64,000 nt of DNA from a virus. A program made the position numbers and the translations under genes. The notes under the pieces are model-generated. The model did not search any database. It saw only the letters and a list, made by a program, of their open reading frames with translations, and had not been told where the DNA came from. Location: positions 125,818 to 189,817 of the IMG/VR virus record IMGVR_UViG_3300045988_052724; one strand, written 5' to 3'. Each line of letters begins with the position of its first letter. Position 1 is the first letter of the stretch. This document shows, in pieces, positions 48,852-63,637 of this stretch.

Positions 48852-48852
48852 T

Positions 48853-48903
48853 AAACCTATCCATCGAATTTCTGTTTCTGGAGTTTTGGATAGGTTTATT
48901 TTA
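48853..48903 (+). terminator. Intrinsic terminator
   Basis: aaacctatcc...ggataggttt (10 bp) followed by atttt. Confidence 0.6.
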
Positions 48904-48945
48904 ACTAACAAGATTGACATATTTATTCAGTAACACTATCTTATT

Positions 48946-49050: not shown

Positions 49051-49092
49051 GTTCCTATGCTGCTGAAGTGAATATGTAAATCAACAAACTAT

Positions 49093-49184
49093 GGAAGTGT
49101 AAGCCTAATTGCTAAGGCAGCGGTCTTGAAAACCGCCAGTAATCGTGTAACAGCGATGTGTGGGTTGGAGTCCCACCACTTCCT
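49093..49184 (+). tRNA. tRNA-Ser(TGA)
   Basis: ggaagtg/cacttcc, gcggt-CTTGAAA-accgc, long variable arm, unusual T-loop TTGGAGT. Confidence 0.75.
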
Positions 49185-49206
49185 CAACTATCAACAACAA
49201 AGTATT

Positions 49207-49515
49207 ATGACAGGAAGATTTAGAGCAATTAACAAGATTAGTAAACACAAGATGTCCTTATTATGGGATAGAGCATTTGCAGTACTTACAAAGGAGTATG
49301 CAGTGGTCAATGCTATTAATAAAGGATTTAGTGAAGAGAGCAAACAAGTAGTAACTAAGAGATTTGATTACCTCGAATCCTTAATCTCTACTGGTCACTT
49401 AGAGAAAATGCCTCGTAAAATGAAGAAGGCATTTATAAGAGAACTTTCAGCAAGGTATAACCTTTGTCTGATTATATTACAACATTGGGATGAATTTAAA
49501 GAAATAAAGGCATGA
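49207..49515 (+). CDS. Hypothetical protein (start moved to the ATG downstream of tRNA-Ser)
   Basis: The ORF-track 49126 start lies inside the tRNA. MTGRFRAINK... begins at 49207. Confidence 0.45.
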   Translation: MTGRFRAINKISKHKMSLLWDRAFAVLTKEYAVVNAINKGFSEESKQVVTKRFDYLESLISTGHLEKMPRKMKKAFIRELSARYNLCLIILQHWDEFKEIKA

Positions 49516-49581
49516 TTGACGTATTATTAGCAGACATTGTATTTGATTGGACTTTCCTAAAACCCTTAATTGAAAGAGACG

Positions 49582-49842
49582 ATGGAAAGAAAGAATCAAA
49601 CGAAGTGGATGAGTCCACGCAACAGGTATTGGCGCAAGCAGAAGTTAGTCCAGAAATATATTACTAGGTTAAAGAAGTTTCCTGCTAGTAATTATGGATT
49701 GTGGTGTGATAACTATAATCAACATTGGACTTTGCCTTATAAATCAACAAGTACTCCATGTAGTTGTTGGTTATGTAAAGGAGAACGATATAATAGACGA
49801 AAGTTTAAAAAGGAAACTAGACTTGAAATAGCAATGTTTTAA
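49582..49842 (+). CDS. Hypothetical basic protein
   Basis: ORF track frame, first ATG. Confidence 0.4.
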   Translation: MERKNQTKWMSPRNRYWRKQKLVQKYITRLKKFPASNYGLWCDNYNQHWTLPYKSTSTPCSCWLCKGERYNRRKFKKETRLEIAMF

Positions 49843-49856
49843 GTTATTTAATTTAT

Positions 49857-50000
49857 AAGAAGTCTTACAGCAACAACATTAGCAATTCGATTATGGTTCG
49901 ACTAGCCTGGGTTCAACTCCCAGCAACCTCCCAAATTATTAGTACTATATGGAGGTTGTAGTGTAACGGTTAGCACAGTATATGCAAACAAATGACTTCT
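49857..50000 (+). ncRNA. Box element (agaagtc TTACAGCAA ... gacttct) enclosing a permuted tRNA-like domain
   Basis: ctggg-TTCAACT-cccag, caacctcc, 18-nt loop, ggaggttg, ta-gtgtaacggttagcac (D-arm). Ends 6 nt before tRNA-Arg. Confidence 0.6.
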
Positions 50001-50006
50001 GATGAT

Positions 50007-50078
50007 GCCTCGATAGTTCAACGGATAGAACAGTAGCCTTCTAAGCTACATATCTAGGTTCGATTCCTAGTCGGGGTA
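50007..50078 (+). tRNA. tRNA-Arg(TCT)
   Basis: gcctcga/tcggggt, gtagc-CTTCTAA-gctac. Confidence 0.8.
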
Positions 50079-50208
50079 CTAACTTGGCAAGGTTGACTTA
50101 TAGACCGAGGTTGTGGTAGGGGTAGTGCCTTATGTGGATGAGGTCGTACCTTATTGGTGATGCATCACTAATCATAAATGGAAGTGGGTACGAGTGTAGG
50201 TCTAACAT

Positions 50209-50281
50209 GGTGTTTATAGTTCAACGGTTAGAATAACTGATTGTGGTTCAGTAGATGTGGTTTCGACTACCACTAAACACC
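50209..50281 (+). tRNA. tRNA-His(GTG) with encoded G-1
   Basis: 8-bp acceptor ggtgttta/taaacacc, actga-TTGTGGT-tcagt. Confidence 0.85.
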
Positions 50282-50376
50282 CTTATGGCAGTAGGTTTTA
50301 AAATAAAATCTTCCTGTTTGTTTACTATTGCCTTAACGTGGTTTAGAAGGATTGCACGAAAATAAATCCTTCCTCT

Positions 50377-50448
50377 GGGGCGGTAGCTCAATGGTAGAGC
50401 GCAGGTCTGAAGAGCCTGGCGTTGGAGGTTCGATTCCTCCTCGCCCCA
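50377..50448 (+). tRNA. tRNA-Phe(GAA)
   Basis: ggggcgg/tcgcccc, caggt-CTGAAGA-gcctg. Confidence 0.85.
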
Positions 50449-50463
50449 CGTCGATTAGTAGAC

Positions 50464-50582
50464 GAGAACTAACAGCATTAGCATTGTTTCCCAAGCAGTT
50501 GGTCTGAGGTTCGAATCCTCACGTTAGCTTAGGCTAATGTAGCTCAGTGGTAGAGCAACAGCCTCATAAACAAATAGTTCTC
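50464..50582 (+). ncRNA. Box element (gagaac TAACAGCA ... gttctc) enclosing a permuted tRNA-like domain
   Basis: tgagg-TTCGAAT-cctca, cgttagc-TTAG-gctaatg, ta-gctcagtggtagagc, then acagc-CTCATAA. Confidence 0.6.
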
Positions 50583-50621
50583 AGCTGTTTTACAGAGTTA
50601 CAGGTTAAAGAAACTCTGTAT

Positions 50622-50709
50622 GGAGAGTTGGGTGAGCGGTCGAAACCAGAGTCCTGCTAAGACTCCGAACCTCAAAAGGGTTCCGCTAGTTCGAATCTAG
50701 CACTCTCCG
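50622..50709 (+). tRNA. tRNA-Ser(GCT)
   Basis: ggagagt/actctcc, gagtc-CTGCTAA-gactc, long variable arm. Confidence 0.85.
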
Positions 50710-50747
50710 CAAGTATATTTGGAATTTTTGTATAATAATGATTAATT

Positions 50748-51086
50748 ATGATTACTATGACAAAGATTCAGCCTATAAATCCTAATGAAATAATCAGCGA
50801 GAAGGTAAAGATAATACCTGACCAAGTTATTAGGGTTTTCAACGAACTGATTGCAAGAAACTGGAACAAAGACAAATCAATAGTGTTTACTAATGAAGCT
50901 GTTGAGTTTATAAAGTTTCTGACTGGTGCTAGTAAGGATACTATCATACAAAACCATTGGTTAGATGTAGAACCTCTCTACAGAGAAAATGGATATGAAG
51001 TAACTTACCATGAGTCCCAGGGTAATGAATCCTTCCCCTCATATTATGAGTTTAGGAAGAAGTCTCTAAATGCTGGGTTCGAATAA
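50748..51086 (+). CDS. Hypothetical protein, 112 aa; 3' end overlaps tRNA-Glu by 15 nt
   Basis: ORF track. Confidence 0.4.
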   Translation: MITMTKIQPINPNEIISEKVKIIPDQVIRVFNELIARNWNKDKSIVFTNEAVEFIKFLTGASKDTIIQNHWLDVEPLYRENGYEVTYHESQGNESFPSYYEFRKKSLNAGFE

Positions 51087-51143
51087 CGGCTAGTTCCTCA
51101 CACTTTCGATGTGAAGATAGGGGTTCGATTCCCCTACCCAGTA
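51072..51143 (+). tRNA. tRNA-Glu(TTC)
   Basis: gctgggt/acccagt, tcaca-CTTTCGA-tgtga. Confidence 0.8.
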
Positions 51144-51326
51144 CCTTGTAGTCCTCCTTAATCCTTAATAGGATAGTTAGGCTACACTGTGAACGAACAG
51201 AGGAGAGGAGTTCACACGTTGGCTAGCAACGTAGTACACAATGGTGGGATAGGAACGGCTAGCACCCACCTTAACTGTTCTTATAATACTAGTTAAACGC
51301 CTAGCGGGGGTTAGAACAGTTAAAAT
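51144..51326 (+). ncRNA. Structured spacer
   Basis: atcct-taat-aggat, ggtggg...cccacc, and the 11-bp ttaactgttct/agaacagttaa. Confidence 0.3.
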
Positions 51327-51398
51327 ACTCCTATCTACTAATGGTTAGGTAATCGGTCTCTCAAGCCGAAAATACGGGTTCGAATCCCGTTGGGAGTA
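51327..51398 (+). tRNA. tRNA-Glu(CTC)
   Basis: actccta/tgggagt, tcggt-CTCTCAA-gccga. Confidence 0.7.
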
Positions 51399-51469
51399 CG
51401 ATAATGGGGTACCATTATGAAAATCATCTTATAACAGAGTTATCAGTTCGTGAGAATAGATAACTAATC

Positions 51470-51539
51470 GAGGGCGTAGTGTAATGGTCAGCACGCCTCC
51501 CTGTCACGGAGGTAGAGGGGTTCGAGTCCCACGTTCTCG
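51470..51539 (+). tRNA. tRNA-Asp(GTC), second copy, weak T-stem
   Basis: gagggcg/cgttctc, cctcc-CTGTCAC-ggagg. Confidence 0.55.
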
Positions 51540-51568
51540 GCTGAACGTAGTAAGAATTACTTTATTGA

Positions 51569-51715
51569 AAGAAGACTTACAGCAAATCAAAACTACTAAG
51601 AATCAATTGGTAAGTGAAAGGTGCAGGGTTCGATTCCTTGCCTATACCGCTAAAGTCCTGATGGGTATAGTAGTTTAAATGGTTAGAACGTATTAGAAAC
51701 AGGCAATAGTCTTCT
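51569..51715 (+). ncRNA. Box element (agaagac TTACAGCAA ... gtcttct) enclosing a permuted tRNA-like domain
   Basis: caggg-TTCGATT-ccttg, ctatacc, 14-nt loop, ggtatag, ta-gtttaaatggttagaac. Confidence 0.6.
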
Positions 51716-51745
51716 GAGCGTACATCTAAGTATGTACGCTAATTC

Positions 51746-51805
51746 GCCTCCTTAGCTTTAATGGTAGAGCAACTCACTTGTAATGAGAAGGTTGTCAGTT
51801 AAGTA
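51746..51805 (+). pseudogene. 3'-truncated tRNA-Thr(TGT)
   Basis: gcctcct acceptor strand, D-arm and ctca-CTTGTAA-tgag are present. There is no matching T-stem or 3' acceptor strand. Confidence 0.5.
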
Positions 51806-51849
51806 TTACAAAGATTAGCATTTGCAAATGTTTTTATGTAAAATGATTT

Positions 51850-52227
51850 ATGAGTAGCTTTAAAGACGGATTGAGAAGAAGTGGTCAGAGTGTATTGGAT
51901 GCAAGGGCGCAGAACTTGTATGAAATGACTAAAATTGAAGAGGAACGTTTCATTCAGGAATGTAAAATGAAGGTTCTTCGTATCAAGAATGAGTTGAACA
52001 AACACAGAGACCTATCTGTAAAGTCCACTACTTCGTTAGAGGTTGGTAACGGCTTTGACCCGAAGGCTTGGGTAGCTAAAAGACATCAATTGGAACGTGA
52101 CCTGAGGGTTGCTAACATTGAATATGCTTTGGCTCTTAAAGTAGACGGAGAAGAGTTTCCAGCTGACGAAACTGAGGAACAACTTAACGTAGCAGCAGTG
52201 CTAGAAAACGATGCTAAATTGAATTAA
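51850..52227 (+). CDS. Hypothetical coiled-coil protein, 125 aa
   Basis: ORF track. Confidence 0.45.
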   Translation: MSSFKDGLRRSGQSVLDARAQNLYEMTKIEEERFIQECKMKVLRIKNELNKHRDLSVKSTTSLEVGNGFDPKAWVAKRHQLERDLRVANIEYALALKVDGEEFPADETEEQLNVAAVLENDAKLN

Positions 52228-52230
52228 TCT

Positions 52231-53178
52231 ATGGGAAGTGGAAGTTATTCTTTTGCAGCTTATGCAAGCTTAGCTAGTGATAGAGGATATGCAACTAAGT
52301 CAGCCGATGCTGTCTTCACTAATCATTCTCTATCAGCTAAATCAGACATTAAATTGTCTAATATAAATGCAAGAACTTATAACACTCAGATTAAACCAGA
52401 AATGGTTGATACTGGTGTTAGAGAAAGTAGAGATAGCAACGAACACCCAGAGACAACTCCAATTATCATTGCTCTTGATGTTACTGGTTCAATGCGTAGA
52501 ACACCTCATGAAATGATTAAGGATAACTTCCCTAAACTCATGGATGCTCTAATGCAACTGGGAGTCAAAGACCCGCAGCTGCTATTTATGGCTGTAGGAG
52601 ACCATGAATATGACCGCTATCCAATTCAAGTTGGGCAGTTTGAGTCTGATACTGAGAAGATTGTAAATTCACTAGAAGAGTTTGTACTCGAAGGTGGAGG
52701 TGGTGGTAATGCTGGCGAAAGCTACTTACTAGCACATATAATTGCTGGGTATCACACTGAAACAGATTCATGGTTTAAGAGACACAAGAAAGGTTACTTA
52801 TTCACCATTGGTGATGAACCTAACTTGCGTAACATCAGTGGACATGCTTTAGAAGATTTCTTAGGCTATCAACATCCTGCTAATCCTATTAGTGCGGATG
52901 AAGCTGTTAAGAAGGCTCAAGAGCAATATAATGTCTATCATATTCACGTTACTAATGGTAGCTATGGTACAAGAATCGCTCCAGGTTGGAAGGATTTACT
53001 TGGACAGAATGTATTAACTTGCGATTCGCATAACATTCACAATGTTATTGCAGAAGCTATCAAGCAACACGAAGACCTTACTGGAATACCTTATGAGGCA
53101 CAAGCAGTGGTTGATATCCCTGCTTACACTCCTAATAGTACCAGTGCAGGTGAAGAAAACGGAACTTATACCTATTAA
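52231..53178 (+). CDS. vWA-domain protein, 315 aa
   Basis: MIDAS-like IIIALDVTGSMRRT with downstream ...GGGGGNAGESY... and TIGDEP. Confidence 0.6.
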   Translation: MGSGSYSFAAYASLASDRGYATKSADAVFTNHSLSAKSDIKLSNINARTYNTQIKPEMVDTGVRESRDSNEHPETTPIIIALDVTGSMRRTPHEMIKDNFPKLMDALMQLGVKDPQLLFMAVGDHEYDRYPIQVGQFESDTEKIVNSLEEFVLEGGGGGNAGESYLLAHIIAGYHTETDSWFKRHKKGYLFTIGDEPNLRNISGHALEDFLGYQHPANPISADEAVKKAQEQYNVYHIHVTNGSYGTRIAPGWKDLLGQNVLTCDSHNIHNVIAEAIKQHEDLTGIPYEAQAVVDIPAYTPNSTSAGEENGTYTY

Positions 53179-53184
53179 TAGTAG

Positions 53185-54291
53185 ATGAATGAAATTGTAT
53201 TAGGTTCGTTCTTTGGTGACGAGGGTAAAGGACAAACTATCCATAATTTATGTAAGGCACATCCTAAAGAAGAGACAATAGTTATACGATTCAGTGGTGG
53301 ACACCAAGTAGGACATACTGTAAGGCATGGAAAGCTTGAACACACATTTAGTAATTATGGTAGTGGTACTTTACTAGGGATACCAACGTACTGGTCTAGT
53401 TACTGTACAGTAGACCCTATTACTACTATGAAGGAGTTGGTTGATTTAAATAAAATGGGAGCAAACCCTGAGATTATTTATCACCCACTCTGCGAGGTTG
53501 TTACTCCCTTTGACGTTATTAGTCAATGGAATAATGAGGACAACCTTAGACATGGTACTGTAGGGACTGGTTTCAAATCTGCTCTTGATAGAGTAGCTGC
53601 TGGTTATCATATTACAGTTCGAGATTGTGCTAATATCATGGTTTTAAGAACCAAGATAGCATCACTTATCAAGAACTATTATGATTTTAGTTCCAACCTT
53701 CCAATGTACAATATTGATGAATGGTGTGTTAAAGTGTATGAGTATTTCAAGTCCGTAATTGTACATGACGAGAGTATTTTAACTCGTTATGAGTACAAGG
53801 TATTTGAAGGCTCACAAGGTATATTATTAGACCAGAGGTTTGGTATAATGCCTTATTGCACTCCAAGCAACACCACTTGTCAAAATGCTGTGGAGATTAT
53901 TAATAGGATTAGAAAAGAATCTAAGAACCACTTAGATAGAATGACGGAAGAGATAACAGACCATGTGTATGTTATCAGACCATATATCACTAGACATGGT
54001 AATGGTCCAATTCCTTCTACTAAACCTGTTAGAGAAGTAAATGACCCTAATAATAAGTTCAACGAGTTTCAAAAGACTCTTAGAGCTGTAGAGTTTGATG
54101 TGAATTTATTCCAGCACTCTTTATTAGTTGATTCTACTTTCATTCCACACCATTACACTCACAGAAGAGTATTAGTTATTACTCATAGAGATGAAATCAC
54201 ATCTCAGTTTAATGATGAACTTCTATCTGGTGATTGGGAGGAACAATTCAACAGCATACGAACATCTTATTATGACAAACTCACTGTTTGA
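53185..54291 (+). CDS. Adenylosuccinate synthetase family protein, short form, 368 aa (PurA/PurZ-like)
   Basis: GSFFGDEGKGQ (P-loop GDEGKG), RFSGGHQVGHTV, FEGSQGILLD, YCTPSNTT, ITRHGNGPIP align to PurA motifs. The Asp/IMP-binding TTGRRRR region is diverged. Confidence 0.65.
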   Translation: MNEIVLGSFFGDEGKGQTIHNLCKAHPKEETIVIRFSGGHQVGHTVRHGKLEHTFSNYGSGTLLGIPTYWSSYCTVDPITTMKELVDLNKMGANPEIIYHPLCEVVTPFDVISQWNNEDNLRHGTVGTGFKSALDRVAAGYHITVRDCANIMVLRTKIASLIKNYYDFSSNLPMYNIDEWCVKVYEYFKSVIVHDESILTRYEYKVFEGSQGILLDQRFGIMPYCTPSNTTCQNAVEIINRIRKESKNHLDRMTEEITDHVYVIRPYITRHGNGPIPSTKPVREVNDPNNKFNEFQKTLRAVEFDVNLFQHSLLVDSTFIPHHYTHRRVLVITHRDEITSQFNDELLSGDWEEQFNSIRTSYYDKLTV

Positions 54292-54304
54292 CATAGTATA
54301 TTAT

Positions 54305-54402
54305 AAAACGACATACAGCAAGTAATCATACTGACTTTCAAATAGTAAAACCCTCTGCTGCCCATTGTGGAGGTTAAAGAGTTGAATGGGAATGTCGTTT
54401 GT
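54305..54402 (+). ncRNA. Box element (aaacgac ATACAGCAA ... gtcgttt GT)
   Basis: Interior stem cccatt/aatggg. Ends 5 nt before tRNA-Gln. Confidence 0.55.
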
Positions 54403-54407
54403 TTTAT

Positions 54408-54479
54408 TGGGCTATAGTGTAACGGCTAGCACACAACACTTTGACTGTTGTAGTCCAGGTTCGAATCCTGGTAGCCCAA
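54408..54479 (+). tRNA. tRNA-Gln(TTG)
   Basis: tgggcta/tagccca, caaca-CTTTGAC-tgttg. Confidence 0.85.
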
Positions 54480-54494
54480 CTAAGAGATAATCTT

Positions 54495-54797
54495 ATGAAG
54501 GCAATGAAGGATAAGAAGAAATTCGGAGGATGTTCCTTAACATCTAAGAATCATAGCTGTAAGAAATTCGGCTGGAGTTATGATAAGGAAACAAGAAGAA
54601 TCTGGAGGATTGAAGCTAAACGTATGGCTCATAAAGTACTTATGCATCTACCTATCAGTAGGGAAGAGATTCAGAAAGCGTGGAGTAATCCATATATGAA
54701 CCTTTCTGAACTTGGTGTTCCTTATGTGTGGGATGGCGTAGGCTATTATGAAAGATGGGTTGAGCAAGTGTACAAAAAATTAAATAACGTAACATGA
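54495..54797 (+). CDS. Hypothetical basic protein (start moved downstream of tRNA-Gln)
   Basis: MKAMKDKKKFGG.... The ORF-track start at 54441 lies inside the tRNA. Confidence 0.45.
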   Translation: MKAMKDKKKFGGCSLTSKNHSCKKFGWSYDKETRRIWRIEAKRMAHKVLMHLPISREEIQKAWSNPYMNLSELGVPYVWDGVGYYERWVEQVYKKLNNVT

Positions 54798-54955
54798 TTT
54801 ATGCAAGAGTAATTCTAGTAGTGCTTATCATACTAATATTAGTATACTATGCTATGGTGGTTGCACACCTCTCTGGTATTATATACCTTACGAGCAGGAA
54901 AGTAACCTTCGCCAAACTGTGTATTCCGTTTTATTATTGGATACATCAGGATTAA
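54794..54955 (+). CDS. Small membrane protein, 53 aa
   Basis: MIYARVILVVLIILILVYYAMVV.... ATGA overlap. Confidence 0.35.
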   Translation: MIYARVILVVLIILILVYYAMVVAHLSGIIYLTSRKVTFAKLCIPFYYWIHQD

Positions 54956-54986
54956 TGATAATGTTTTAATGTAAATAAGTAGAAAA

Positions 54987-55883
54987 ATGAATCAACCTAA
55001 AGTAAGTAAAAGTTCAATCTTTGCTATTTTGGCAGGAGTAATCGTAGTACTGTTAGTCTGCATGGCAGGTTCACTCTTTGAAGATGCTGATAAGTCTAAG
55101 AACTATGTTTGTCAGATGCCTATGTCTGGTAAATACGTTGTATGGACAGATGGTGGTCTTCAATGGCAAGGCCTTGGTAACAAGCACGAGTACTTCAAAA
55201 CTTCTCAAATAGAGTTCGTAGATTTAACGGAAGTTAGTGAAGGTAATTATGTTGCATCTGGCGCAAATCCAGCAGCTTCACTTACCTTTAATGATAAGGG
55301 TAAGGGATTTATTATCGGTTCTTTCCGAGTTGTTATGCCTAATGATGAAGCTAATATGAAGAAGATTCAGCAGGACTTTGGTTCTGAAAAGGCATTAATA
55401 GCTAACTTAATTAAACCTACTCTATATAAGGTTGTAACATCTTGTGGTCCTCTGATGTCATCATTGGAATCTGTATCTGAGACAAGAACTGACCTTATTG
55501 CCTACATCACTGACCAGCTTAATAACGGAGTATACAAGACGGTTGTAATACGTGATTCCGTTACCAATGAAATTACTGGTGAGAAGGAATTGAGAGCTAA
55601 GGCACAGATTGTTGCTGATGCTAACTCTCCAAGTGGTTATAAACGTCAAGAAACATCACCGTTCAGTCAGTATGGTATTACCTGTGGATTGGTATCTATT
55701 TTGGATATTAAATATGATGGAGCTACTCAATCTCAGATTGATGCCCAAAAGCAAGCTAACTTAGCCGTAATAACTTCTAAGACTAAATCTTTGGAAGCAA
55801 TTCAAAGAACTGTTCAGATTACTGAAGAGGGCAGGTGTGTAGAGTTCTACAACATACTGAGGGTTTGGAGTCTGAGACGGTAA
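54987..55883 (+). CDS. SPFH/Band-7 (prohibitin-like) membrane protein, 298 aa
   Basis: N-terminal TM segment, then a typical SPFH core (FRVVMPNDEANMKKIQQDFGSEKALIANLIKPTLYKVV...). Confidence 0.5.
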   Translation: MNQPKVSKSSIFAILAGVIVVLLVCMAGSLFEDADKSKNYVCQMPMSGKYVVWTDGGLQWQGLGNKHEYFKTSQIEFVDLTEVSEGNYVASGANPAASLTFNDKGKGFIIGSFRVVMPNDEANMKKIQQDFGSEKALIANLIKPTLYKVVTSCGPLMSSLESVSETRTDLIAYITDQLNNGVYKTVVIRDSVTNEITGEKELRAKAQIVADANSPSGYKRQETSPFSQYGITCGLVSILDIKYDGATQSQIDAQKQANLAVITSKTKSLEAIQRTVQITEEGRCVEFYNILRVWSLRR

Positions 55884-55967
55884 GAACAAACTGGGTAAAG
55901 ACTAAGTAATTGCGTATTTACGGACCTATAGCTCAGCCAGGTCAGAGCAACTAATTATGAGTCAGAT

Positions 55968-56044
55968 AGGGACGTATCCCCTCAAGCTTATACCTTGTAG
56001 AAAGGGTAGTCGGTCGCACGTGGGTTCAAGCCCCACCGTCCCTA
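55968..56044 (+). ncRNA. Nested tRNA-like element inside the insertion
   Basis: agggacg/cgtccct acceptor, gtggg-TTCAAGC-cccac T-arm. The D and anticodon regions are irregular. Confidence 0.4.
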
Positions 56045-56117
56045 CAACTTCTGGATTGAATTTTTAGTTTTGCACCAAAACATTTGGTATTATGATTATT
56101 TTCATATATATTTGTAT

Positions 56118-56666
56118 ATGAATTACAATGATTATAATACACAGAAGTTAAGAGGTTTAAAGCGCAAATTAGAGCTAGTAAAATCTCGTGGTGGTAAATG
56201 TGAACTATGCGGCTATGATAGAAACATAGCTGTTCTAGAATTTCACCATATCAATCCAGATGAGAAAGAGTTTCAGTTAGATATGAGACATTTATCTAAT
56301 ACAAGTCTAGAAAGGCTTAAAGAGGAAGCAGATAAATGTCAACTTCTATGCGCTAATTGTCATAGAGAAGTACATAACCCTCACTTGGGAATGGACGAAG
56401 TTGAAGATTTAGTTAATACTGAAGCTAAAGATAAGACGTCTTTTGAAAATATGACTGGGTCTGTATGCCCAGTATGCGGCAAAAGATTTCCTAAATCTAA
56501 GGGTAAGATATACTGTTCTAAGGAATGCAGAGATGCTGATAAACATTATCCTTCTCTAGAAGAAGTAAATGAGCAGTACGAAATACTTAAGAATTGGGAG
56601 AAAGTTGCTCAGCATTTTGGATTAACTCGCAGAGTTATTCAAGGAATAAGAAAGAAAGACTCATAA
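56118..56666 (+). CDS. HNH homing-type endonuclease inside the tRNA-like gene
   Basis: CELCGYDRNIAVLEFHHINPDEKEF ... LLCANCHREVHN. Its stop TAA is part of the CTCATAA junction. ATG at 56118 preferred. Confidence 0.75.
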   Translation: MNYNDYNTQKLRGLKRKLELVKSRGGKCELCGYDRNIAVLEFHHINPDEKEFQLDMRHLSNTSLERLKEEADKCQLLCANCHREVHNPHLGMDEVEDLVNTEAKDKTSFENMTGSVCPVCGKRFPKSKGKIYCSKECRDADKHYPSLEEVNEQYEILKNWEKVAQHFGLTRRVIQGIRKKDS

Positions 56667-56864
56667 TCAGGAGGTCGGGGGTTCAAAGCCCTCTAGGTCC
56701 ACTCCAGTTCTGCAGGACTTATCTATGCTGGGATAGAGAAACAAAGCAACCAGCTAGGCTACTTGAGTGAAGTGACGTATAGTAGTAGGTAATTCCATAC
56801 CTAATTGACGGAATATAGTTAGCCATTACTGAAATTAATGGCAAATCAATGAGAATTTGGTGGG

Positions 56865-56938
56865 AACTTAGTAGCTCAGCTGGATAGAGCACTCCCTAGC
56901 TAAGGGAGAGGTCAGTGGTTCGAATCCACTCTAGGTTG
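56865..56938 (+). tRNA. tRNA with an Arg(CCT)-type body but anticodon loop TAGCTAA (GCT, A33)
   Basis: aacttag/ctaggtt, ctccc-TAGCTAA-gggag, T agtgg-TTCGAAT-ccact. Its backbone closely parallels the tRNA at 61696. Confidence 0.55.
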
Positions 56939-56961
56939 CAAGTAATATTAAACTATTAAAT

Positions 56962-57111
56962 ATGAGTAATTTTACGAAAGGTATTATATTAATTATCCTA
57001 GGTATCTGTATAGGATTACTGTCTACAGTAGTTCCAGAAGCAATTGGAGTATTTATCCCACTTGCAGTATTTTTAGGAACACTGGGAATATTTAAGTTAA
57101 TAGATGATTGA
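56962..57111 (+). CDS. Small membrane protein, 49 aa
   Basis: MSNFTKGIILIILGICIGLLSTVVPEAIGVFIPLAVFLGTLGIFKLIDD. The antisense track ORF is judged spurious. Confidence 0.4.
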   Translation: MSNFTKGIILIILGICIGLLSTVVPEAIGVFIPLAVFLGTLGIFKLIDD

Positions 57112-57486
57112 ATGAAGAATATACTTTTACTTTTATTACTTATTCCCATGTCTATGTCAGGTCAGCATAATGTAACGGCAACGTATTATCATGCAGGACC
57201 AAAACATGGTTTATCATGGCACACAGCCAGTGGGAATAGAATTAGTGTTAAGAAACTAAATGCTGGTAAGTTAAGATGGGTAGCGCTATCACATAACTTA
57301 TTAAAGCATTATGATTATGGAGATACTATTATAGTAGTATCTAATAACCCTAAGCTTAGAGGTAAATGGGTAGTGATGGATAAGATGCACAAGAGACACT
57401 ATAATAAGATAGATTTCTTGACTCCATCTGGAAAGAATTTAGGAATGCTAAAACCAACTAAAGTAAAGATAAAGAAAAAAGAATAG
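57112..57486 (+). CDS. Secreted RlpA/3D-domain (double-psi beta-barrel) lytic transglycosylase-like protein
   Basis: Signal peptide, then TATYYHAGPKHG...TASGNR pattern. Confidence 0.5.
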   Translation: MKNILLLLLLIPMSMSGQHNVTATYYHAGPKHGLSWHTASGNRISVKKLNAGKLRWVALSHNLLKHYDYGDTIIVVSNNPKLRGKWVVMDKMHKRHYNKIDFLTPSGKNLGMLKPTKVKIKKKE

Positions 57487-57490
57487 CAAT

Positions 57491-57571
57491 GGGGTAGTGG
57501 CGGAACGGTAGACGCGCATGGCTTAGGACCATGTGTCTTCGGGCGTGAGAGTTCGAGTCTCTCCTACCCTA
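57491..57571 (+). tRNA. tRNA-Leu(TAG)
   Basis: ggggtag/ctaccct, catgg-CTTAGGA-ccatg, long variable arm. Confidence 0.8.
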
Positions 57572-57594
57572 CAAACTTTTAAACAACAGGAAGT

Positions 57595-57966
57595 ATGAAA
57601 GAGATTAAAGAATTTATTCAAGAATTGTACGATAGTGCAACTTCTGGCTACACTGGTATGTTAGTACCCCTCGATGCTGCTACCAGAATTGTGTCCGAGG
57701 CGTTTGCTGCTGGTATGAACTTTCAAGACCATGAAATAAAGAGTAAACATAAGTTTAGGCGATTTGAGAAGTCAGATATTAATAAGGTGGCTGACTTTAA
57801 ATATATTCCAAATCCTGCCAATGGAGGTGATGATGATTACATCATTGCTGATATGGTATTTAGGGAATACACATATGGAGAAGATGGTACAGAACCCTTC
57901 TGTAATGTTAATGCCTTAAATAGAGATTTTGGAGAACTTAGGTTGAAAGAAATCATTAAACTTTAA
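57595..57966 (+). CDS. Hypothetical protein, 123 aa
   Basis: ORF track. Confidence 0.45.
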   Translation: MKEIKEFIQELYDSATSGYTGMLVPLDAATRIVSEAFAAGMNFQDHEIKSKHKFRRFEKSDINKVADFKYIPNPANGGDDDYIIADMVFREYTYGEDGTEPFCNVNALNRDFGELRLKEIIKL

Positions 57967-57969
57967 GCT

Positions 57970-58413
57970 ATGGCAATATTTATAGATTTAAGACCTCAAT
58001 TGAAGCATATAAGACTTCTTTACATCTTTATAGGTATACTCGTGTGTACTGCTTCTTTCAAAGGATGCCATTCAGGCAAGTTGGGAGAATTTAACGGACA
58101 TCGTACAGTCCCAGTAGACATTAATAATAGATATAAAAAGGCAACTTCTAATGGAATGGACTGTTATGTAACAGGGACTGTTCCAGGTGTAGGTGATTGT
58201 ACAATTAAGGTCACTGAGAGTACATACGATGAGGCTAGAAAGAAGGGTAAGTACCAGAGGTTGTATTTTGACCTTTATGGTAATGAGTATATGTCCACTG
58301 GATGGCTTTTGCCTGTGTTCCTTCTGGCTGCTGCTTGTATGGCTGGTGGAGGTCTTGCTATATTTAATGTATATCATTACATTGTTGAATTAGTTAAAAG
58401 GTATCATGGTTAA
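57970..58413 (+). CDS. Membrane protein, 147 aa
   Basis: N- and C-terminal TM segments. Confidence 0.45.
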   Translation: MAIFIDLRPQLKHIRLLYIFIGILVCTASFKGCHSGKLGEFNGHRTVPVDINNRYKKATSNGMDCYVTGTVPGVGDCTIKVTESTYDEARKKGKYQRLYFDLYGNEYMSTGWLLPVFLLAAACMAGGGLAIFNVYHYIVELVKRYHG

Positions 58414-59221
58414 ACAAGAATTATTAAAAGTTGCAGACGTGAGAGCAGAATTAGCTCTTGTAGCTGCAGAGTATGTAAGACGGTATCACGCTAAAGTAGA
58501 TACCAGCAAGGCTAGAGTTGAGTTAGCAAAGCTTAGAGAGTCCGGCTTAGGAGGTTCTTTGAATGCTAAGAAGCTTGCCTCTATTATTGATAGTACATCT
58601 GAAGCTGACCCATTTGGGGTTAGAATAAACATTGACAAAGTAATTAACACCTTAACAAAAGCTAAGCTTATATTGCCAGATTCTATAGTAGTACCCTGGA
58701 AAGCTTTCTTTGAAATATTGGCAAAGTATAATCTAGCGTGTGGACCTATAAGTGCTTATGAAGGAATCATACCCGAGGAGAATACTAGAGATGTGGAGAA
58801 GGCATCCCATGCGTTGAGTACATCTAATATTGCTTTTAACGACTTCTTATATCTCCGTAGAGTTAGAGTTGGAACTGATAAGCTCTCTAAGAAAGAACTA
58901 AATATGGTGGTGGAATACCTACGAAGGTTTCCATATGTTCCAAGTCAGCTTGAGATTTCTGATATACTACATAATATAGTTGGTAAGCGGCTTAATGTTA
59001 GAGCTACATATGATGCTCTTATGCGTAATGAATGGATAATTGCAGCTCCAGTAGATACTATGACTAATAATACTACTATAGAACTATATTCTGAGTACTC
59101 AGAAATGAAGAAACGTATAATAGAAGACCCTATTATATTTAAGGCTAGTGAGATAGGGGCAGTTATAGTTACTATGTGGGATAAAGAAGCCGAGGATAGT
59201 ATGTTTGACAAATATAGATAA
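58406..59221 (+). CDS. Hypothetical protein, 271 aa
   Basis: ORF track. Confidence 0.45.
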   Translation: MVKQELLKVADVRAELALVAAEYVRRYHAKVDTSKARVELAKLRESGLGGSLNAKKLASIIDSTSEADPFGVRINIDKVINTLTKAKLILPDSIVVPWKAFFEILAKYNLACGPISAYEGIIPEENTRDVEKASHALSTSNIAFNDFLYLRRVRVGTDKLSKKELNMVVEYLRRFPYVPSQLEISDILHNIVGKRLNVRATYDALMRNEWIIAAPVDTMTNNTTIELYSEYSEMKKRIIEDPIIFKASEIGAVIVTMWDKEAEDSMFDKYR

Positions 59222-59464
59222 ATGTCGATGAAATACTTATTGATATTATTAGTGTTGGGGTTCGCTTCATGTACTGGAGCAGAACCTAGAATGACAGCTC
59301 CTTCTAATAAGGAGAAGTTTGCTATTGAGGACTTTGCTAAGAGTGTCACTGCTGCTGAGTTTACGTACAGAGGTCATAGTTATATATGGTTCCATCACCC
59401 AGGAGGATGGGATGGTAATGATGGCATAGTACATAATCCAGACTGTGAGTGTAATAAGAAATAA
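59222..59464 (+). CDS. Lipoprotein, 80 aa
   Basis: Lipobox LVLGFASC. Confidence 0.5.
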   Translation: MSMKYLLILLVLGFASCTGAEPRMTAPSNKEKFAIEDFAKSVTAAEFTYRGHSYIWFHHPGGWDGNDGIVHNPDCECNKK

Positions 59465-59470
59465 ATCCAT

Positions 59471-59576
59471 ATAAGAACATAAAGAGACAAAGCCAGACTA
59501 GCTAGCAACGAGGCGAACGGGAGGTATTAAGGTTACATCAGTGATGATATAGACACGATGAGCTTTATGTTCTTAT
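59471..59576 (+). ncRNA. 106-nt element closed by a perfect 14-bp helix, ending 4 nt before tRNA-Met
   Basis: ataagaacataaag (59471-59484) pairs with ctttatgttcttat (59563-59576). Confidence 0.5.
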
Positions 59577-59580
59577 TAAT

Positions 59581-59655
59581 GGCGACATAGCTCATTTTGG
59601 TTAGAGCGTGGAAATCATAACTCCAAGGTGGTTGGTTCGAATCCGACTGTCGCCA
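59581..59655 (+). tRNA. tRNA-Met/Ile2(CAT), class I
   Basis: ggcgaca/tgtcgcc, tggaa-ATCATAA-ctcca (A31:C39 mismatch). Confidence 0.75.
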
Positions 59656-59669
59656 CACATCTTAATTTC

Positions 59670-59924
59670 ATGTATATGAGTAGAAGTAGAAAGAAGCACA
59701 TTATTGTCAAAGACAAGACTGGAAGATGGTATAATAAACTTATTCGGAGGAGGAACAAGATAGAGGTTAAACAGATAGCTAATTTAACTGATATGCTAGA
59801 ATATAATATCTCACAACCCTATGAATTAGTAAACCCTTGGGATATTTGTGATTGGAGATTTCTTGTAGATAAACGTGATGATATGTTCACCCCTGATGAA
59901 ATTAGAAAGTATTGCTGTAAATAA
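59670..59924 (+). CDS. Hypothetical basic protein (start moved downstream of the tRNA)
   Basis: MYMSRSRKKHIIVKDK.... Confidence 0.45.
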   Translation: MYMSRSRKKHIIVKDKTGRWYNKLIRRRNKIEVKQIANLTDMLEYNISQPYELVNPWDICDWRFLVDKRDDMFTPDEIRKYCCK

Positions 59925-60085
59925 CAGCACTCCCAATCTCAGTCAAAGGAGTTAAAATATTAGGCTGGGTGATGACAACTACATAGAGTTGAGCGTATGT
60001 AATAAGACGCGTTCCGAAGTACAAGGAATGGGGTGGGTGCAGAATACCTCTTTAGACTATCTTGTATAGTCAATCACTGCTTCAT

Positions 60086-60171
60086 GGCTCGATGGCGAAA
60101 TTGGTAGACGCCCCAGATTTAAGCTCTGGTGTCCAGAAATGGGCGTGTGGGTTCGAATCCCACTCGGGCTA
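60086..60171 (+). tRNA. tRNA-Leu(TAA)
   Basis: ggctcga/tcgggct, ccaga-TTTAAGC-tctgg, long variable arm. Confidence 0.8.
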
Positions 60172-60210
60172 CACCCTTGAATTTACTCTTAATCCTTAAA
60201 TATAACTGAT

Positions 60211-60441
60211 ATGAATATCTTTGGTAACACTGCAGCAGGATTTAGTAAGGAAGTAGACAACGCAATGTCTACATTTAAGAGTACTATTACGAAGCTTAAA
60301 GCTACAGCTGAGAAAGCAGTAGCAACTAAAGCTGAGAAGCAAGATGAAATTAAGAAGCTGGAATCTGAATGTTCAGCTCTTGATGGAGTATCTACTAAGG
60401 CTAATAACTTGGCTGCCAAGTTGGAAGCATTATTTGAATAA
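60211..60441 (+). CDS. Hypothetical coiled-coil protein, 76 aa
   Basis: ORF track. The antisense ORF is judged spurious. Confidence 0.45.
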   Translation: MNIFGNTAAGFSKEVDNAMSTFKSTITKLKATAEKAVATKAEKQDEIKKLESECSALDGVSTKANNLAAKLEALFE

Positions 60442-60443
60442 TC

Positions 60444-60845
60444 ATGAAAGTTGAGAATTTACTTGACCATCCTATTGACTTCACAACCGTTGAGGGATGC
60501 AAATCGTTCAACGAGTGGGTTAACAAAGACATATCTAATGCCTTCTACTTAGGGTTCCTAAGAGAAGAATTTAGTGAGTATGTCCCTAAGATAAACGAGA
60601 GCGAAGAGGGAGTTCAGTTTATAAAGAGTATGGTTACAGCAGGTGTAAAGGCTAAAAAGTATCTAAAAGAACTCGCTAGATTGATGGAGCCTTACTTACA
60701 TAGTAAAGAAGGGTTTATAATCCTGGATATGGTTAACGATGTACTAGAGAAAGTATCTTTAGAGAAGAAGGATGATGTCTATGGAGTTGCCTATGTATTA
60801 GGTGTTTATGTTAACTACTTATTTACTACTCAAGCTGAGGCATGA
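60444..60845 (+). CDS. Hypothetical protein, 133 aa
   Basis: ORF track. Confidence 0.45.
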   Translation: MKVENLLDHPIDFTTVEGCKSFNEWVNKDISNAFYLGFLREEFSEYVPKINESEEGVQFIKSMVTAGVKAKKYLKELARLMEPYLHSKEGFIILDMVNDVLEKVSLEKKDDVYGVAYVLGVYVNYLFTTQAEA

Positions 60846-61252
60846 GTTCTTATATTGTTTATACTGACGGTGCATATTCCAATACCAGAAATCAAGGTGG
60901 TATAGGGTTTGTCATTTTGAAAGAAGGTAAAGAAGTTGCTAGATATAGTAAAATGTATAAGAATACTACAAACCAAAGAATGGAGCAGATGGCAGCAATA
61001 GTTGCCCTTGAATCTATTACTACACCTTCAGAAGTTACCATAGTTTCTGATTCTCAGTATGTGGTCTGCACATACACTAAGAACTGGAAGAGAAAGGCGA
61101 ATCTGGACTTGTGGAAGAGATTTGATGCAGCAATCGCATTCCATACTAAGGTTGACTTCAGTTGGACTAAGGGTCATGCTGAAGACCAATATAACAAGAT
61201 TTGTGATAAGCTGGCGCAAGAAGCTAGTAAGACTATAGAGATTACTAATTAA
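60842..61252 (+). CDS. rnhA: Ribonuclease HI
   Basis: VYTDGAY, NQRMEQMA, VSDSQYV, TKGHAEDQYNKICDKLA (DEDD pattern). Confidence 0.8.
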   Translation: MSSYIVYTDGAYSNTRNQGGIGFVILKEGKEVARYSKMYKNTTNQRMEQMAAIVALESITTPSEVTIVSDSQYVVCTYTKNWKRKANLDLWKRFDAAIAFHTKVDFSWTKGHAEDQYNKICDKLAQEASKTIEITN

Positions 61253-61272
61253 TAATTTGTAAATTCTTCTAT

Positions 61273-61404
61273 ATGAAATACAAGAAAATGGTAGCTAACT
61301 TAGAAGCAGCTAAGAGATGGTGGGATGCTCAACCTGAATCATTCAAGAAGGCAACTACACGTCCTGGTTCTGTTAAATGCAAATCTGTTAATAGAGGTAA
61401 GTAA
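61273..61404 (+). CDS. Possible microprotein, 43 aa
   Basis: MKYKKMVANLEAAKRWWDAQPESFKK.... Confidence 0.3.
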   Translation: MKYKKMVANLEAAKRWWDAQPESFKKATTRPGSVKCKSVNRGK

Positions 61405-61552
61405 TACCGATTGGTTAAGGGAAGTGGGAAGTCCGTAACCCTTTGCTTAGGCTAAACCCACCATGAGAGGTATCGGTGACTCTCAATGCCCATGTAAAAT
61501 TACACTGGGTTTCGGGGCAGGAGGTACATGATTACTATCCTGCCCTGCGTAT
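61405..61552 (+). ncRNA. Structured leader upstream of tRNA-Lys(CTT)
   Basis: taccgat/atcggta closing helix with nested aaggg/ccctt and gtggg/cccac. 8-bp hairpin gggcagga/tcctgccc. Confidence 0.35.
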
Positions 61553-61625
61553 GACCCTATAGCTCAGTTGGCAGAGCTAATGACTCTTAATCATTAGGTC
61601 GTGAGTTCGAATCTCACTGGGGTCA
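61553..61625 (+). tRNA. tRNA-Lys(CTT)
   Basis: gacccta/tggggtc, aatga-CTCTTAA-tcatt. Confidence 0.85.
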
Positions 61626-61695
61626 CAATAAAGTTGAAATAATGAAAGAAGAAGTAGTATGTCACTTGCTCGTGAGAGTAGGTGGCATTTTTTAT

Positions 61696-61769
61696 GGTCT
61701 AGTAGCTCAGCTGAACAGAGCGTTCCCCTCCTAAGGGAAAGGTCGCGGGTTTGAATCCCGCCTGGACCA
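61696..61769 (+). tRNA. tRNA-Arg(CCT)
   Basis: ggtctag/ctggacc, ttccc-CTCCTAA-gggaa, T-loop TTTGAAT. Confidence 0.8.
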
Positions 61770-61791
61770 CTAATTTAACGTATTAAAGATT

Positions 61792-62121
61792 ATGAAAGTA
61801 TATGATGTTATAATAATTGCTGAGGATATCTATATAAATGAAATAAGTCATTTATGCTATCCAGGTATGTGTTGGTGTCTTAAAGTGGCAGCAACTAGAG
61901 GATTGGATTTTAAAGAGAAGAATAGGAGAGGACATCCGTCTTACAAAGACTTAGTCACTAATATACCTGAATTTAATCCAGAGTTCCTTAAAGCTACTAA
62001 AGATGTACGACATGCAGGTTTAGACTTCTGGTGGGACAACAACGATACAAAGTCTAGGCTCAGTGCCTTTAGTGTCTTAAAAGACATTTATAAAGAGAGT
62101 GTTAGAGAATTTGAATATTAA
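61792..62121 (+). CDS. Hypothetical protein, 109 aa
   Basis: ORF track. Confidence 0.45.
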   Translation: MKVYDVIIIAEDIYINEISHLCYPGMCWCLKVAATRGLDFKEKNRRGHPSYKDLVTNIPEFNPEFLKATKDVRHAGLDFWWDNNDTKSRLSAFSVLKDIYKESVREFEY

Positions 62122-62124
62122 CAT

Positions 62125-62545
62125 AATAGAGGGGATGTGGGCTTAAGAGTAGCCATCATTTAAAGAGTTGCGAGCGGAAGTTATGGTATATCCTTAGGTC
62201 ACGATTAGCTGTCGTGATGTAGACAAGCGTGAAGGTATAGAACTTACTGGTCCTTCCGTAGAGCCGCAGGGAGGTGCAAGCATTAATCTCGGAGAGTAGT
62301 ATTCCAAGTCTGAAATGACGAGGGTTCCTATACGTTGCTCAATGTGATATTAAGTGTCGGAGCCAGTTATTGATAAGTTCCAATAGTACGAGAGGAGCCT
62401 GGAATTAAGATTGGGAGAGTACGTGATACTCTTAGCCACTAATAGGAGAACGAAACACGGCTAATGTGTACCTTAAGTCAATGCACATACGTTCAACGTC
62501 AATAACCGCCCTTAGAGCATTTGGTGTAACAGCACACCCTCTATT
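62125..62545 (+). ncRNA. 421-nt structured RNA closed by a 9-bp helix; carries a sarcin-ricin-loop copy and other 23S-rRNA-like motifs
   Basis: aatagaggg (62125-62133) pairs with ccctctatt (62537-62545). No ORFs. tagtacgagagga at 62384-62396 sits in a hairpin closed by ttcca/tggaa. Ends 4 nt before tRNA-Arg(ACG). Confidence 0.6.
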
Positions 62546-62549
62546 CTTT

Positions 62550-62621
62550 AGTCTTATAGTTTAATGGATAAAACGCTAGCCTACGAAGCTTGAGTTCCCA
62601 GTTCGATTCTGGGTAAGACTA
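62550..62621 (+). tRNA. tRNA-Arg(ACG)
   Basis: agtctta/taagact, ctagc-CTACGAA-gcttg. Confidence 0.8.
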
Positions 62622-62644
62622 CAATACAAGAAATCTAAATTCTT

Positions 62645-63037: not shown

Positions 63038-63637
63038 ATGGCAATTAACTTGCAAAAAGGTGGACGCATTGACCTTTCTAAGGAGTCCACAGCTAGTGTG
63101 TTTAGAATTGGTTTGGGCTGGGATGCAGCACAACCTGGTAAAGAATTTGACTTGGATGCTATGGCATTGATGTTGAAAGCTGATGGTAAAGTCCTCAGTG
63201 ATAACAACATGGTGTTCTACGGTAACTTGGAAGACCCTTCTAAGTCTGTAAAGCATTCTGGTGATAACAGAACTGGTGCTGGTGACGGTGATGATGAAAC
63301 TATCACTATCGACACTACTAAGGTTCCTGCCGAGGTGCAAGAAGTTGTTATCTTAGTAAACATTCACGATGCTAAGAACCGTCAACAGAACTTCGGTATG
63401 GTTCACAATGCTAAGGTGAACCTGTATGAAGGTGCAGAAGGCAACAACATCCTTGCTAAGTATGACTTGGAAGAAGATGCTTCTATGGATAGAGCATTGG
63501 TATTCTGTAAGCTGTACCGTAAGGATGGTAGCTGGAAATTCCAGGCTGTGAATGAAGGTAAGGGTAACTATCAGTCAGTGCTGTTGTGCGACGTTCTGGC
63601 TGGTTACGGTATTGATGCTGGTCCAAAGGATTTATAA
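63038..63637 (+). CDS. terD: TerD-domain stress-response protein, 199 aa
   Basis: MAINLQKGGRIDLSK ... GLGWD ... DLDAMALML ... HSGDNRTGAGDGDDETI ... typical TerD/CAPAB Ca-binding motifs. Confidence 0.85.
   Translation: MAINLQKGGRIDLSKESTASVFRIGLGWDAAQPGKEFDLDAMALMLKADGKVLSDNNMVFYGNLEDPSKSVKHSGDNRTGAGDGDDETITIDTTKVPAEVQEVVILVNIHDAKNRQQNFGMVHNAKVNLYEGAEGNNILAKYDLEEDASMDRALVFCKLYRKDGSWKFQAVNEGKGNYQSVLLCDVLAGYGIDAGPKDL

Follow-up and report, generated by a model that had tools for sequence, protein, structure and literature searches.

What is the stretch of about 420 bases, free of open reading frames (ORFs), that lies within the tRNA gene array of a large phage and appears to carry a piece of the ribosome? 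The stretch, hereafter the element, is a non-coding RNA locus at positions 62125–62545 of a 64,000-nucleotide window (positions 125,818 to 189,817 of IMG/VR record IMGVR_UViG_3300045988_052724; coordinates below are those of the window, the whole stretch of DNA that was analysed). The source is a large phage, in whose window 33 tRNA genes, a transfer-messenger RNA (tmRNA) and a RAGATH-34 RNA were detected by ARAGORN and Rfam. An original prediction, made from the letters alone, took the element for a miniaturised, diverged copy of the 3′ part of 23S ribosomal RNA (rRNA), composed of segments resembling domains V and VI around an exact copy of the sarcin–ricin loop (SRL). We found instead that its 5′ end (62133–62167), its 3′ end (62523–62537) and its terminal helix reconstitute the GTPase-associated centre (GAC) of domain II, that is, helices 42–44 or E. 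coli positions 1051–1108.

The clue to the GAC came from distant blastn matches in two records labelled as phage that are really bacterial 23S genes. When three real bacterial 23S genes (S. aureus, Paenibacillus and E. coli) were used as the comparison set, positions 62133–62168 proved 88–89% identical to the segment corresponding to E. coli 1055–1088 (88% to E. coli itself; blastn). This segment comprises helix 43 and the start of helix 44, and belongs to the GAC, the 58-nt domain that binds ribosomal protein uL11 and thiostrepton. The second half lies at the far end of the element and had escaped the original prediction: GGUGUAACAGCACAC (62523–62537) is the counterpart of helix 44, E. coli 1090–1104 (AGCGUAAUAGCUCAC), with 11 of 14 positions identical to E. 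coli 1091–1104. G62133 corresponds to E. coli G1055 and C62537 to C1104, and the terminal helix, P1, runs on exactly where helix 42 would, from the G1055–C1104 pair outwards. With the intervening sequence excised, 41 of the 50 positions of E. coli 1055–1104 are identical. With its 5′ half, its 3′ half and its terminal helix all matching, the element amounts to a GAC that is interrupted, between the equivalents of positions 1089 and 1090, by an insert of about 355 nt.

All parts of this fold lie on the plus strand. P1 pairs AAUAGAGGG (62125–62133, the analogue of distal helix 42) with its complement CCCUCUAUU (62537–62545), which ends 4 nt 5′ of a tRNA gene; this 9-bp closing helix had been predicted correctly, and it covaries strongly in relatives. 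The helix 43 analogue (E. coli 1057–1081), identified by blastn and covariation, spans 62135–62159 and bears the 9-nt loop UUAAGAGUA at 62143–62151. It is followed at 62160–62167 by the junction UUAAAGAG (E. coli 1082–1089, with the 1082–1086 pair, A1084/A1085, G1087 and A1088), which is supported by covariation. The helix 44 analogue (E. coli 1090–1102) at 62523–62535, supported by both identity and covariation, contains a G·A pair, G1091–C1100 and U1092·G1099, and its hexaloop reads GUAACA where E. coli has GUAAUA. Helices 42, 43 and 44 thus have rRNA-like lengths, loops of 9 and 6 nt, and the junction UUAAAG. The element was expected to be free of ORFs, and none longer than 37 amino acids was found; stretches without a stop reach at most 60 codons under code 11, or 66 codons if TAG is recoded. 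A coding region, recoded stops included, was rejected, since there is no convincing ORF and the covariation is of the RNA type.

The element belongs to a family. IMG/VR was scanned twice, independently, with exact patterns for the helix 43 side and for the helix 44 side. Either pattern yielded elements in which the opposite half of the GAC is present too, and together they gave at least 51 distinct members of 180–430 nt, on contigs of 5–550 kb that are mostly longer than 50 kb. The nearest named relatives of the window's element are in Prevotella Lak megaphages (~73% identity over 350 nt), and cultured carriers include Yersinia phages fHe-Yen9-03/04, Xanthomonas phages XaC1 and XacN1, and Acinetobacter phage ME3, in all of which the region is unannotated. 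A scan of bacteria and archaea with the 3′ pattern (one genome for each of 185,579 species) returned six matches, three of them due to chance and three of them true elements on short contigs of metagenome-assembled genomes (MAGs), one with a tRNA array. The genuine elements in this collection sit on mis-binned or phage-like MAG contigs, and the family was absent from bona fide bacterial chromosomes in the species scanned; in practice it is phage-specific. Two contigs of one 'Neisseriaceae' MAG (L092 and L095) carry two different family members and represent either two phages or one phage with two paralogous RNAs of this kind.

A covariance model built solely from insert-excised phage cores found the true GAC of the S. 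aureus, Paenibacillus and E. coli 23S genes end to end, at 65–70 bits and E values of 1e−20 to 1e−22. The phage RNAs share with the ribosomal GAC the same helices, the same junction sequence UUAAAGA and the signatures of its tertiary contacts. They differ in being free-standing, phage-encoded and outside any rRNA gene; in the 120–355-nt domain that interrupts them between 1089 and 1090; and in the replacement of A1089 by G and of the A1090–U1101 pair by G·A, along with a helix 43 loop that is variable at 1067–1070. The Rfam large-subunit (LSU) rRNA models (RF02541) did not match the element at the gathering threshold or at E ≤ 10, because its GAC copy is split by the insert. An LSU rRNA gene or fragment does not fit the locus, as just two short, non-collinear pieces match 23S. 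More broadly, Rfam 15 cmscan, run on the element at E ≤ 10 and on the loci of eight relatives at either E ≤ 0.1 or E ≤ 1, returned only tRNAs and noise; in the absence of any Rfam match at these loci, LSU rRNA, group I and II introns, RNase P, GOLLD, ROOL, tmRNA and ribosomal-protein leaders were rejected as identities.

Covariation, scored on 39–45 non-identical cores, points to selection on the fold. Across 39 cores, 94.5% of cells were paired compared with 74.4% in shuffles, and the covariation score was 0.533 compared with 0.158 (a level reached by 0 of 500 shuffles; slid-partner controls ≤0.198), although these shuffle tests overstate significance because the sequences are related. In P1, eight of the nine pairs showed compensatory changes, and the Lak-B3 version has a wholly different yet complementary pair of strands. 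Within the GAC core (E. coli numbering), pair 1058–1080 occurs as UA, GC, AU and CG; pair 1064–1074 as CG and GC; pair 1082–1086 as UA (35), AU (3) and CG (1); and pair 1092–1099 as UA (23), CG (12) and UG (10). An alternative register of helix 44, GUGU/ACAC, which was the choice of RNAalifold and appeared 'terminator-like' in a scan, was rejected because 12 cores give C·A there, whereas the rRNA register pairs in 45 of 45.

The covariation extends to the tertiary structure. Nucleotide 1072 in the helix 43 loop was identical to nucleotide 1092 in helix 44 in all 45 cores (C/C in 12, U/U in 33; permutation p ≤ 1e−5). The same covariation among rRNAs, from C with C–G to U with U–A, was reportedly described by Conn, Gutell and Draper in 1998, the U form being the eukaryotic one. 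In the E. coli GAC, C1072 contacts C1092 of the C1092–G1099 pair and G1071 contacts G1091 (PMC2952862); with 1072 always equal to 1092 in the phage cores, the sequence signature of this known tertiary contact is thus reproduced. As a sequence signature, G1071, G1091 and C1100 are likewise invariant, and U1060, A1088, A1084/A1085 and G1055–C1104 are also kept; A1085, G1087 and A1088 were invariant in 45 cores, being partly fixed by the search pattern. In the Lak-B3, Lak-C1 and Lak-A1 versions (L005–L007, ~1517–1956), helix 44 is remodelled to CC-GAGUAAA-GG, which breaks the identity of 1072 and 1092; these Lak megaphage versions, whose SRL loop is likewise degenerate, may by now serve a different function.

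These results leave the view of the element as a diverged copy or relic of domains V and VI, taken from a host 23S gene, with almost no chance of being right. The exact SRL 13-mer speaks in its favour, and we recovered no similarity beyond it to that part of 23S by blastn (element and window against the three 23S genes), by an nhmmer profile of 18 relatives or by Rfam: the only matches were the 13-mer and the domain II piece, which is the best match overall. The segments gggttcctatacg and ttagccactaataggagaacgaaac, offered as resemblances to domains V and VI, have no significant rRNA counterpart, and 62139–62175, assigned to helices 91 and 92, is actually part of the domain II GAC. In 23S, ~1550 nt separate the two rRNA pieces, whose arrangement in the element is different. 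Covariation of the helices and of a tertiary pair shows the fold to be under selection, and so excludes a decaying relic of captured rDNA. The more general expectation of a structured, non-coding, rRNA-mimicking RNA beside a tRNA held up well, with a covarying fold, no ORF and conservation in related phages.

The SRL copy was likewise predicted correctly. The 13-mer UAGUACGAGAGGA (tagtacgagagga) at 62384–62396 is identical at 13 of 13 positions to E. coli 23S 2653–2665 and occurred in 0 of 100 shuffles of the window. As predicted, it sits at the tip of a hairpin (62376–62406, plus strand), with the loop AUAGUACGAGAGGAGCC on a stem AGUUCCA/UGGAAUU (62376–62382/62400–62406) that is kept with changes in relatives. 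A second conserved hairpin at 62434–62462 (plus strand; alignment columns 375–410) has a covarying stem AGCC/GGCU and the loop ACUAAUAGGAGAACGAAACAC, which is not SRL-like in the window; three relatives (L046, L063 and L071) carry an SRL-type loop at this position. Two members (L046 and L063) therefore have two SRL loops, L071 has one at the second position only, and the window has one at the first only. Judged by sequence, the full signature AGUACGAGAGGA, a bulged-G S-turn with a GAGA tetraloop closed by C–G at a hairpin tip, would be present in the window and in most of its long-class relatives. Such loops are confined to this long class, where they occur at two architectural positions and on different stems (UUCCA/UGGAA in the window, UUGCA/UGCAA in L026, GCCCGC/GCGGGU in L071). 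The likeness to the ribosomal SRL (helix 95) consists in UAGUACGAGAGGA at a hairpin tip with non-canonical flanks; the phage copy differs in its stem, in lying in another molecule beside a GAC copy, in its restriction to the long class and in sometimes occurring twice. The SRL copy looks selected where present, yet accessory, the GAC copy being the constant part. Elsewhere in the window, TGGTACGAGAGGA at 20918–20930 (minus strand) is a one-mismatch version of the 13-mer; about 1.6 chance matches with ≤2 mismatches are expected, and this copy is probably meaningless.

Between the two halves of the GAC, a fourth helix (P2 with the insert) enters the fold between 1089 and 1090. The insert, whose structure is resolved in part, begins at 62168–62177 with the 5′ strand of P2 (U62169, G62170, C62171), a tandem G·A/A·G (G62172, A62173) and the 5′ strand of P3 (62174–62177). 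At 62264–62271 the 3′ strand of P3 (CCGC, 62264–62267) passes directly into the 5′ strand of P4 (AGGG, 62268–62271), and the insert ends at 62509–62522 with the 3′ strand of P4 (CCCU), UAGA with the tandem G·A partners, the 3′ strand of P2 (G62517, C62518, A62519) and UUU, all on the plus strand. Common to all classes are a covarying P2 (UNC/GNA) capped by the tandem G·A, then P3 and P4 (AGGG/CCCU), with conserved junction strands. The P2 pair i52–j10 occurs as GC (36), UA (6), AU (2) and CG (1), and i51–j11 as UA (41), AU (2) and GC (2). The motif CAGGG(G)A of the P3/P4 strands is found in short-class members too, and every class retains YAGAG.AUUUGG. For 18 long-class sequences, RNAalifold gave 65 pairs, 41 of them with compensatory changes, including changes in both P3 (columns 50–53/197–200) and P4 (201–204/459–462). 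Outside P2, P3 and P4 the insert domains differ between classes, and three siblings (L018, L033 and L070) have the window's P1, GAC core and downstream tRNA-Arg(ACG) with a wholly different insert (~210 nt versus ~410 nt overall). The insert thus appears to be a swappable module.

Inserts that are large, conserved and variable between classes could also suggest no more than a scaffold: an RNA with a function other than ribosome mimicry, perhaps a self-assembling or catalytic one like other ornate phage RNAs, would be reusing the GAC-like four-way junction and S-turn/GNRA hairpin as compact structural modules. Sarcin–ricin (bulged-G) modules and GNRA loops are recurrent building blocks, and GOLLD, a large RNA of unknown function, also occurs in tRNA arrays (PMC12286853). 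However, the likeness goes beyond architecture, with 41 of 50 GAC positions and 13 of 13 SRL positions matching rRNA, and a model made from phage sequences only retrieves the rRNA GAC at E ~1e−20. The presence of two rRNA elements of one functional site in a single RNA is hard to put down to chance, and no Rfam ribozyme or ornate-RNA model matches. We consider such a scaffold quite unlikely.

The genomic setting is that of a tRNA-associated transcript. Across 51 loci, 327 of 327 tRNA genes lie on the same strand as the element, and 24 elements are ≤30 nt from a tRNA, often with tRNAs on both sides. The window's element was said to abut a tRNA, and this is tRNA-Arg(ACG) at 62550–62622 (plus strand; ARAGORN and Rfam), which starts 4 nt on, lies outside the RNA itself and is found in the same arrangement in sibling contigs; it probably sets the 3′ processing site of the RNA. 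No sigma-70-like promoter was predicted upstream of the window's element on the plus strand, which fits co-transcription with the tRNA array. The RNA would thus be co-transcribed with the tRNAs and freed by tRNA-processing enzymes, its 3′ end presumably arising from the RNase P cut at the downstream tRNA. The XacN1 copy is followed by a clear intrinsic terminator. In the same phage (L097), the RNA (~705–985) lies directly downstream of a gene annotated as 2′-5′ RNA ligase (37–687), a single case that may hint at counter-defence against RNA damage. Four other carriers (L049, L058, L079 and L085) have tmRNAs near the RNA, and CTA-anticodon tRNAs (amber suppressors, labelled tRNA-Pyl by ARAGORN) occur in the same arrays in L012, L030, L058 and L089, which fits stop-codon recoding in several carrier phages.

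What might such an RNA do? The GAC and the SRL form the ribosomal docking site for EF-G and EF-Tu (PMC8661411), and with copies of both in one molecule the element therefore carries both rRNA elements of the docking site for translational GTPases. The GAC folds autonomously, and uL11 binding requires its tertiary fold (PMC6239185); since uL11 recognises this fold and not its context, the RNA would probably be bound by host uL11 in the infected cell, and such binding seems likely unless the extra helix interferes. Both parts of the site are known toxin targets: Tre23 ADP-ribosylates helix 44 bases 1095–1098, while VapC-mt20/26 and ricin attack the SRL (PMC8661411). Together with the role of the GAC and SRL in factor docking, this leads us to favour a decoy that works by molecular mimicry. 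The RNA, or its ribonucleoprotein, might compete with ribosomes for proteins that recognise the factor-binding site, the most likely targets being host effectors that inactivate ribosomes by attacking helix 44 or the SRL. Translation would then be kept running for the phage, by the same logic as phage tRNAs that replace those destroyed by nucleases. Of the roles put forward in the original prediction, a decoy or a sponge still seems the most plausible. We give roughly even chances to the specific proposal that a phage-specific GAC-fold RNA, joined in this lineage by an SRL hairpin, acts as a decoy of the ribosomal site and is probably bound by host uL11.

Several observations weigh against this proposal. 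The insert turns the three-way junction of the GAC into a four-way one, which might hinder uL11 binding, and the single-sequence minimum free energy of the element is unremarkable (z = −0.89). The SRL signature is missing from the short classes and degenerate in Lak-A/B/C, where the loop reads AAUUAC[G/A]AGAGGA and the bulged G is lost, and in L016, L021 and L044, which have AAGC in the loop; mimicry of the SRL is therefore not the core function. The helix 43 loop is not rRNA-like, A1067 being A in 21 cores and G in 24 and positions 1068–1070 varying likewise, which speaks against a faithful imitation as far as A1067-reading factors or drugs are concerned. The exact-pattern search fixes many positions and so biases which of them look invariant. 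There is no consistently adjacent protein gene, and Pfam gave neither an informative domain nor a common one for ORFs near the window's element and at six other loci. A tblastn search found no L11 or L12 homologue in carrier phages (L10 was not searched); the Lak, Yersinia, Xanthomonas and Acinetobacter carriers are not among the records with L11/L12 matches, most of which resemble contaminating bacterial DNA. The partner protein is inferred, and catalytic toxins would be hard to titrate unless the decoy binds them tightly.

RelA activation requires L11, and the RNA could act as a sponge rather than a toxin decoy, sequestering host uL11, possibly with uL10–bL12, to give L11-poor ribosomes with, for example, blunted RelA-dependent (p)ppGpp signalling. 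What stays constant across the family is precisely the fold that uL11 binds, tertiary contacts included, and L11 binds this fold itself (PMC6239185). As no L11 gene was found in the carrier phages, L11 bound to the RNA would have to come from the host. Against this, uL11 is about as abundant as ribosomes and mostly bound, which would demand a very high copy number of the RNA, and the SRL hairpins and the conserved P2/P3/P4 junction would go unexplained. We regard a pure sponge as unlikely.

Alternatively, the RNA, with or without uL11, could trap a translational GTPase or stringent factor (EF-G, IF2, RF3 or RelA) through its GAC and SRL copies and so reprogramme translation. Isolated SRL and thiostrepton-domain oligonucleotides were each reportedly found by Munishkin and Wool in 1997 to bind EF-G in vitro. 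The GAC and SRL dock these factors in the ribosome (PMC8661411), and the long class bears both in one molecule. However, most family members have no SRL, A1067, a main factor contact, is not conserved, and the SRL loop variants AAGC and AAGA would abolish factor contacts, which makes such a trap, taken alone, very unlikely. Returning to the decoy, we put forward tentatively, at somewhat less than even confidence, the broader notion that large phages may encode a free-standing, trans-acting replica of the factor docking site, consisting of the GAC fold, probably with host uL11 on it, and in some lineages of one or two SRLs as well. This replica would either soak up defence effectors that inactivate ribosomes or trap the stringent factor or translational GTPases.

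Other features of the window were recorded alongside the element. The tmRNA at 40283–40821 (Rfam, 83 bits) is unusually long, with a stretch of ~219 nt outside the model. Between it and the tRNA array lies a full-length RAGATH-34 RNA at 41623–41733 (73.8 bits, above the gathering score), a member of a candidate structured RNA class of unknown function. The array itself (44972–62622) consists of 33 co-oriented genes, among them an odd tRNA at 45115–45209 to which ARAGORN assigned the 4-base anticodon 'ttag', and several long tRNA-Met calls (including 46163–46249 and 46452–46535). A weak tRNA at 55968–56044 was called by Rfam only (30.4 bits). Inside the array, between tRNA-Lys(CTT) and tRNA-Arg(CCT), a terminator-like hairpin at 61659–61688 (13 pairs, then a U run) may be a processing or attenuation signal. 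Just downstream of the array, a TerD-domain protein is encoded at 63038–63637 (Pfam E 1e−64), and from 63642 onward there is another ORF, similar in its first residues to the TerD-domain ORF. Long stretches lacking an ORF of ≥60 amino acids under the standard bacterial code (1–5438, 32239–33311 and 37018–37755, up to 2.3 kb at 3161–5438) may be due to recoded stop codons, of the kind found in Lak phages, or may harbour additional non-coding RNAs.

How does the RNA compare with known systems? Like the leaders of ribosomal-protein mRNAs (L10, L1), it is a non-ribosomal RNA that copies a protein-binding site of rRNA; those, however, are cis-acting 5′ leaders of ribosomal-protein operons in cellular genomes, whereas the phage RNA is discrete and lies in tRNA arrays. 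An autoregulatory leader was rejected on the grounds that the element is flanked by tRNAs and hypothetical genes, with no ribosomal-protein gene nearby and no match to an Rfam leader. Viruses and phages are known to use decoy RNAs, such as phage pseudo-ToxI antitoxin mimics and adenovirus VA RNA. The proposed logic resembles that of these decoys and of phage tRNAs that replace host tRNAs targeted by nucleases, in that a virus RNA imitates a host RNA to divert or outlast an effector, but what is imitated in this case would be the ribosome itself, at one of its functional sites. 'Ribosome-in-pieces' oligonucleotides present the same two rRNA domains outside the ribosome; those are synthetic and separate, whereas the phage's are natural, joined and conserved. 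GOLLD and ROOL are, similarly, large structured phage non-coding RNAs among tRNA genes whose function is unproven, but the phage RNA does not match their Rfam models and they are not reported as rRNA mimics (PMC12286853). Nothing resembling such an RNA was described in the full-text literature searched, in a jumbo-phage review from 2026 or in the paper on GOLLD/ROOL structures; within the limits of these libraries, we regard it as a kind of phage RNA not described before.

If large phages do encode such a decoy or trap, it would be the first viral mimic of a functional centre of rRNA, and would give phages a new RNA-based way of taking over the host or countering its defences. The translation toolkit of large phages, with its tRNAs, tmRNA and synthetases, would gain an RNA that imitates part of the ribosome. 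A decoy role would imply that attacks on the ribosomal GTPase centre, at helix 44 or the SRL, are common enough for many phage lineages to keep a countermeasure, and the RNA could then serve as bait for discovering such effectors. Should uL11 or translation factors be bound, this natural 'ribosome-in-pieces' could show how the GAC and SRL cooperate. The more than 50 natural GAC variants with large insertions form a data set for RNA folding and for recognition by proteins and thiopeptides, and the presence of the family in cultured phages makes these ideas directly testable.

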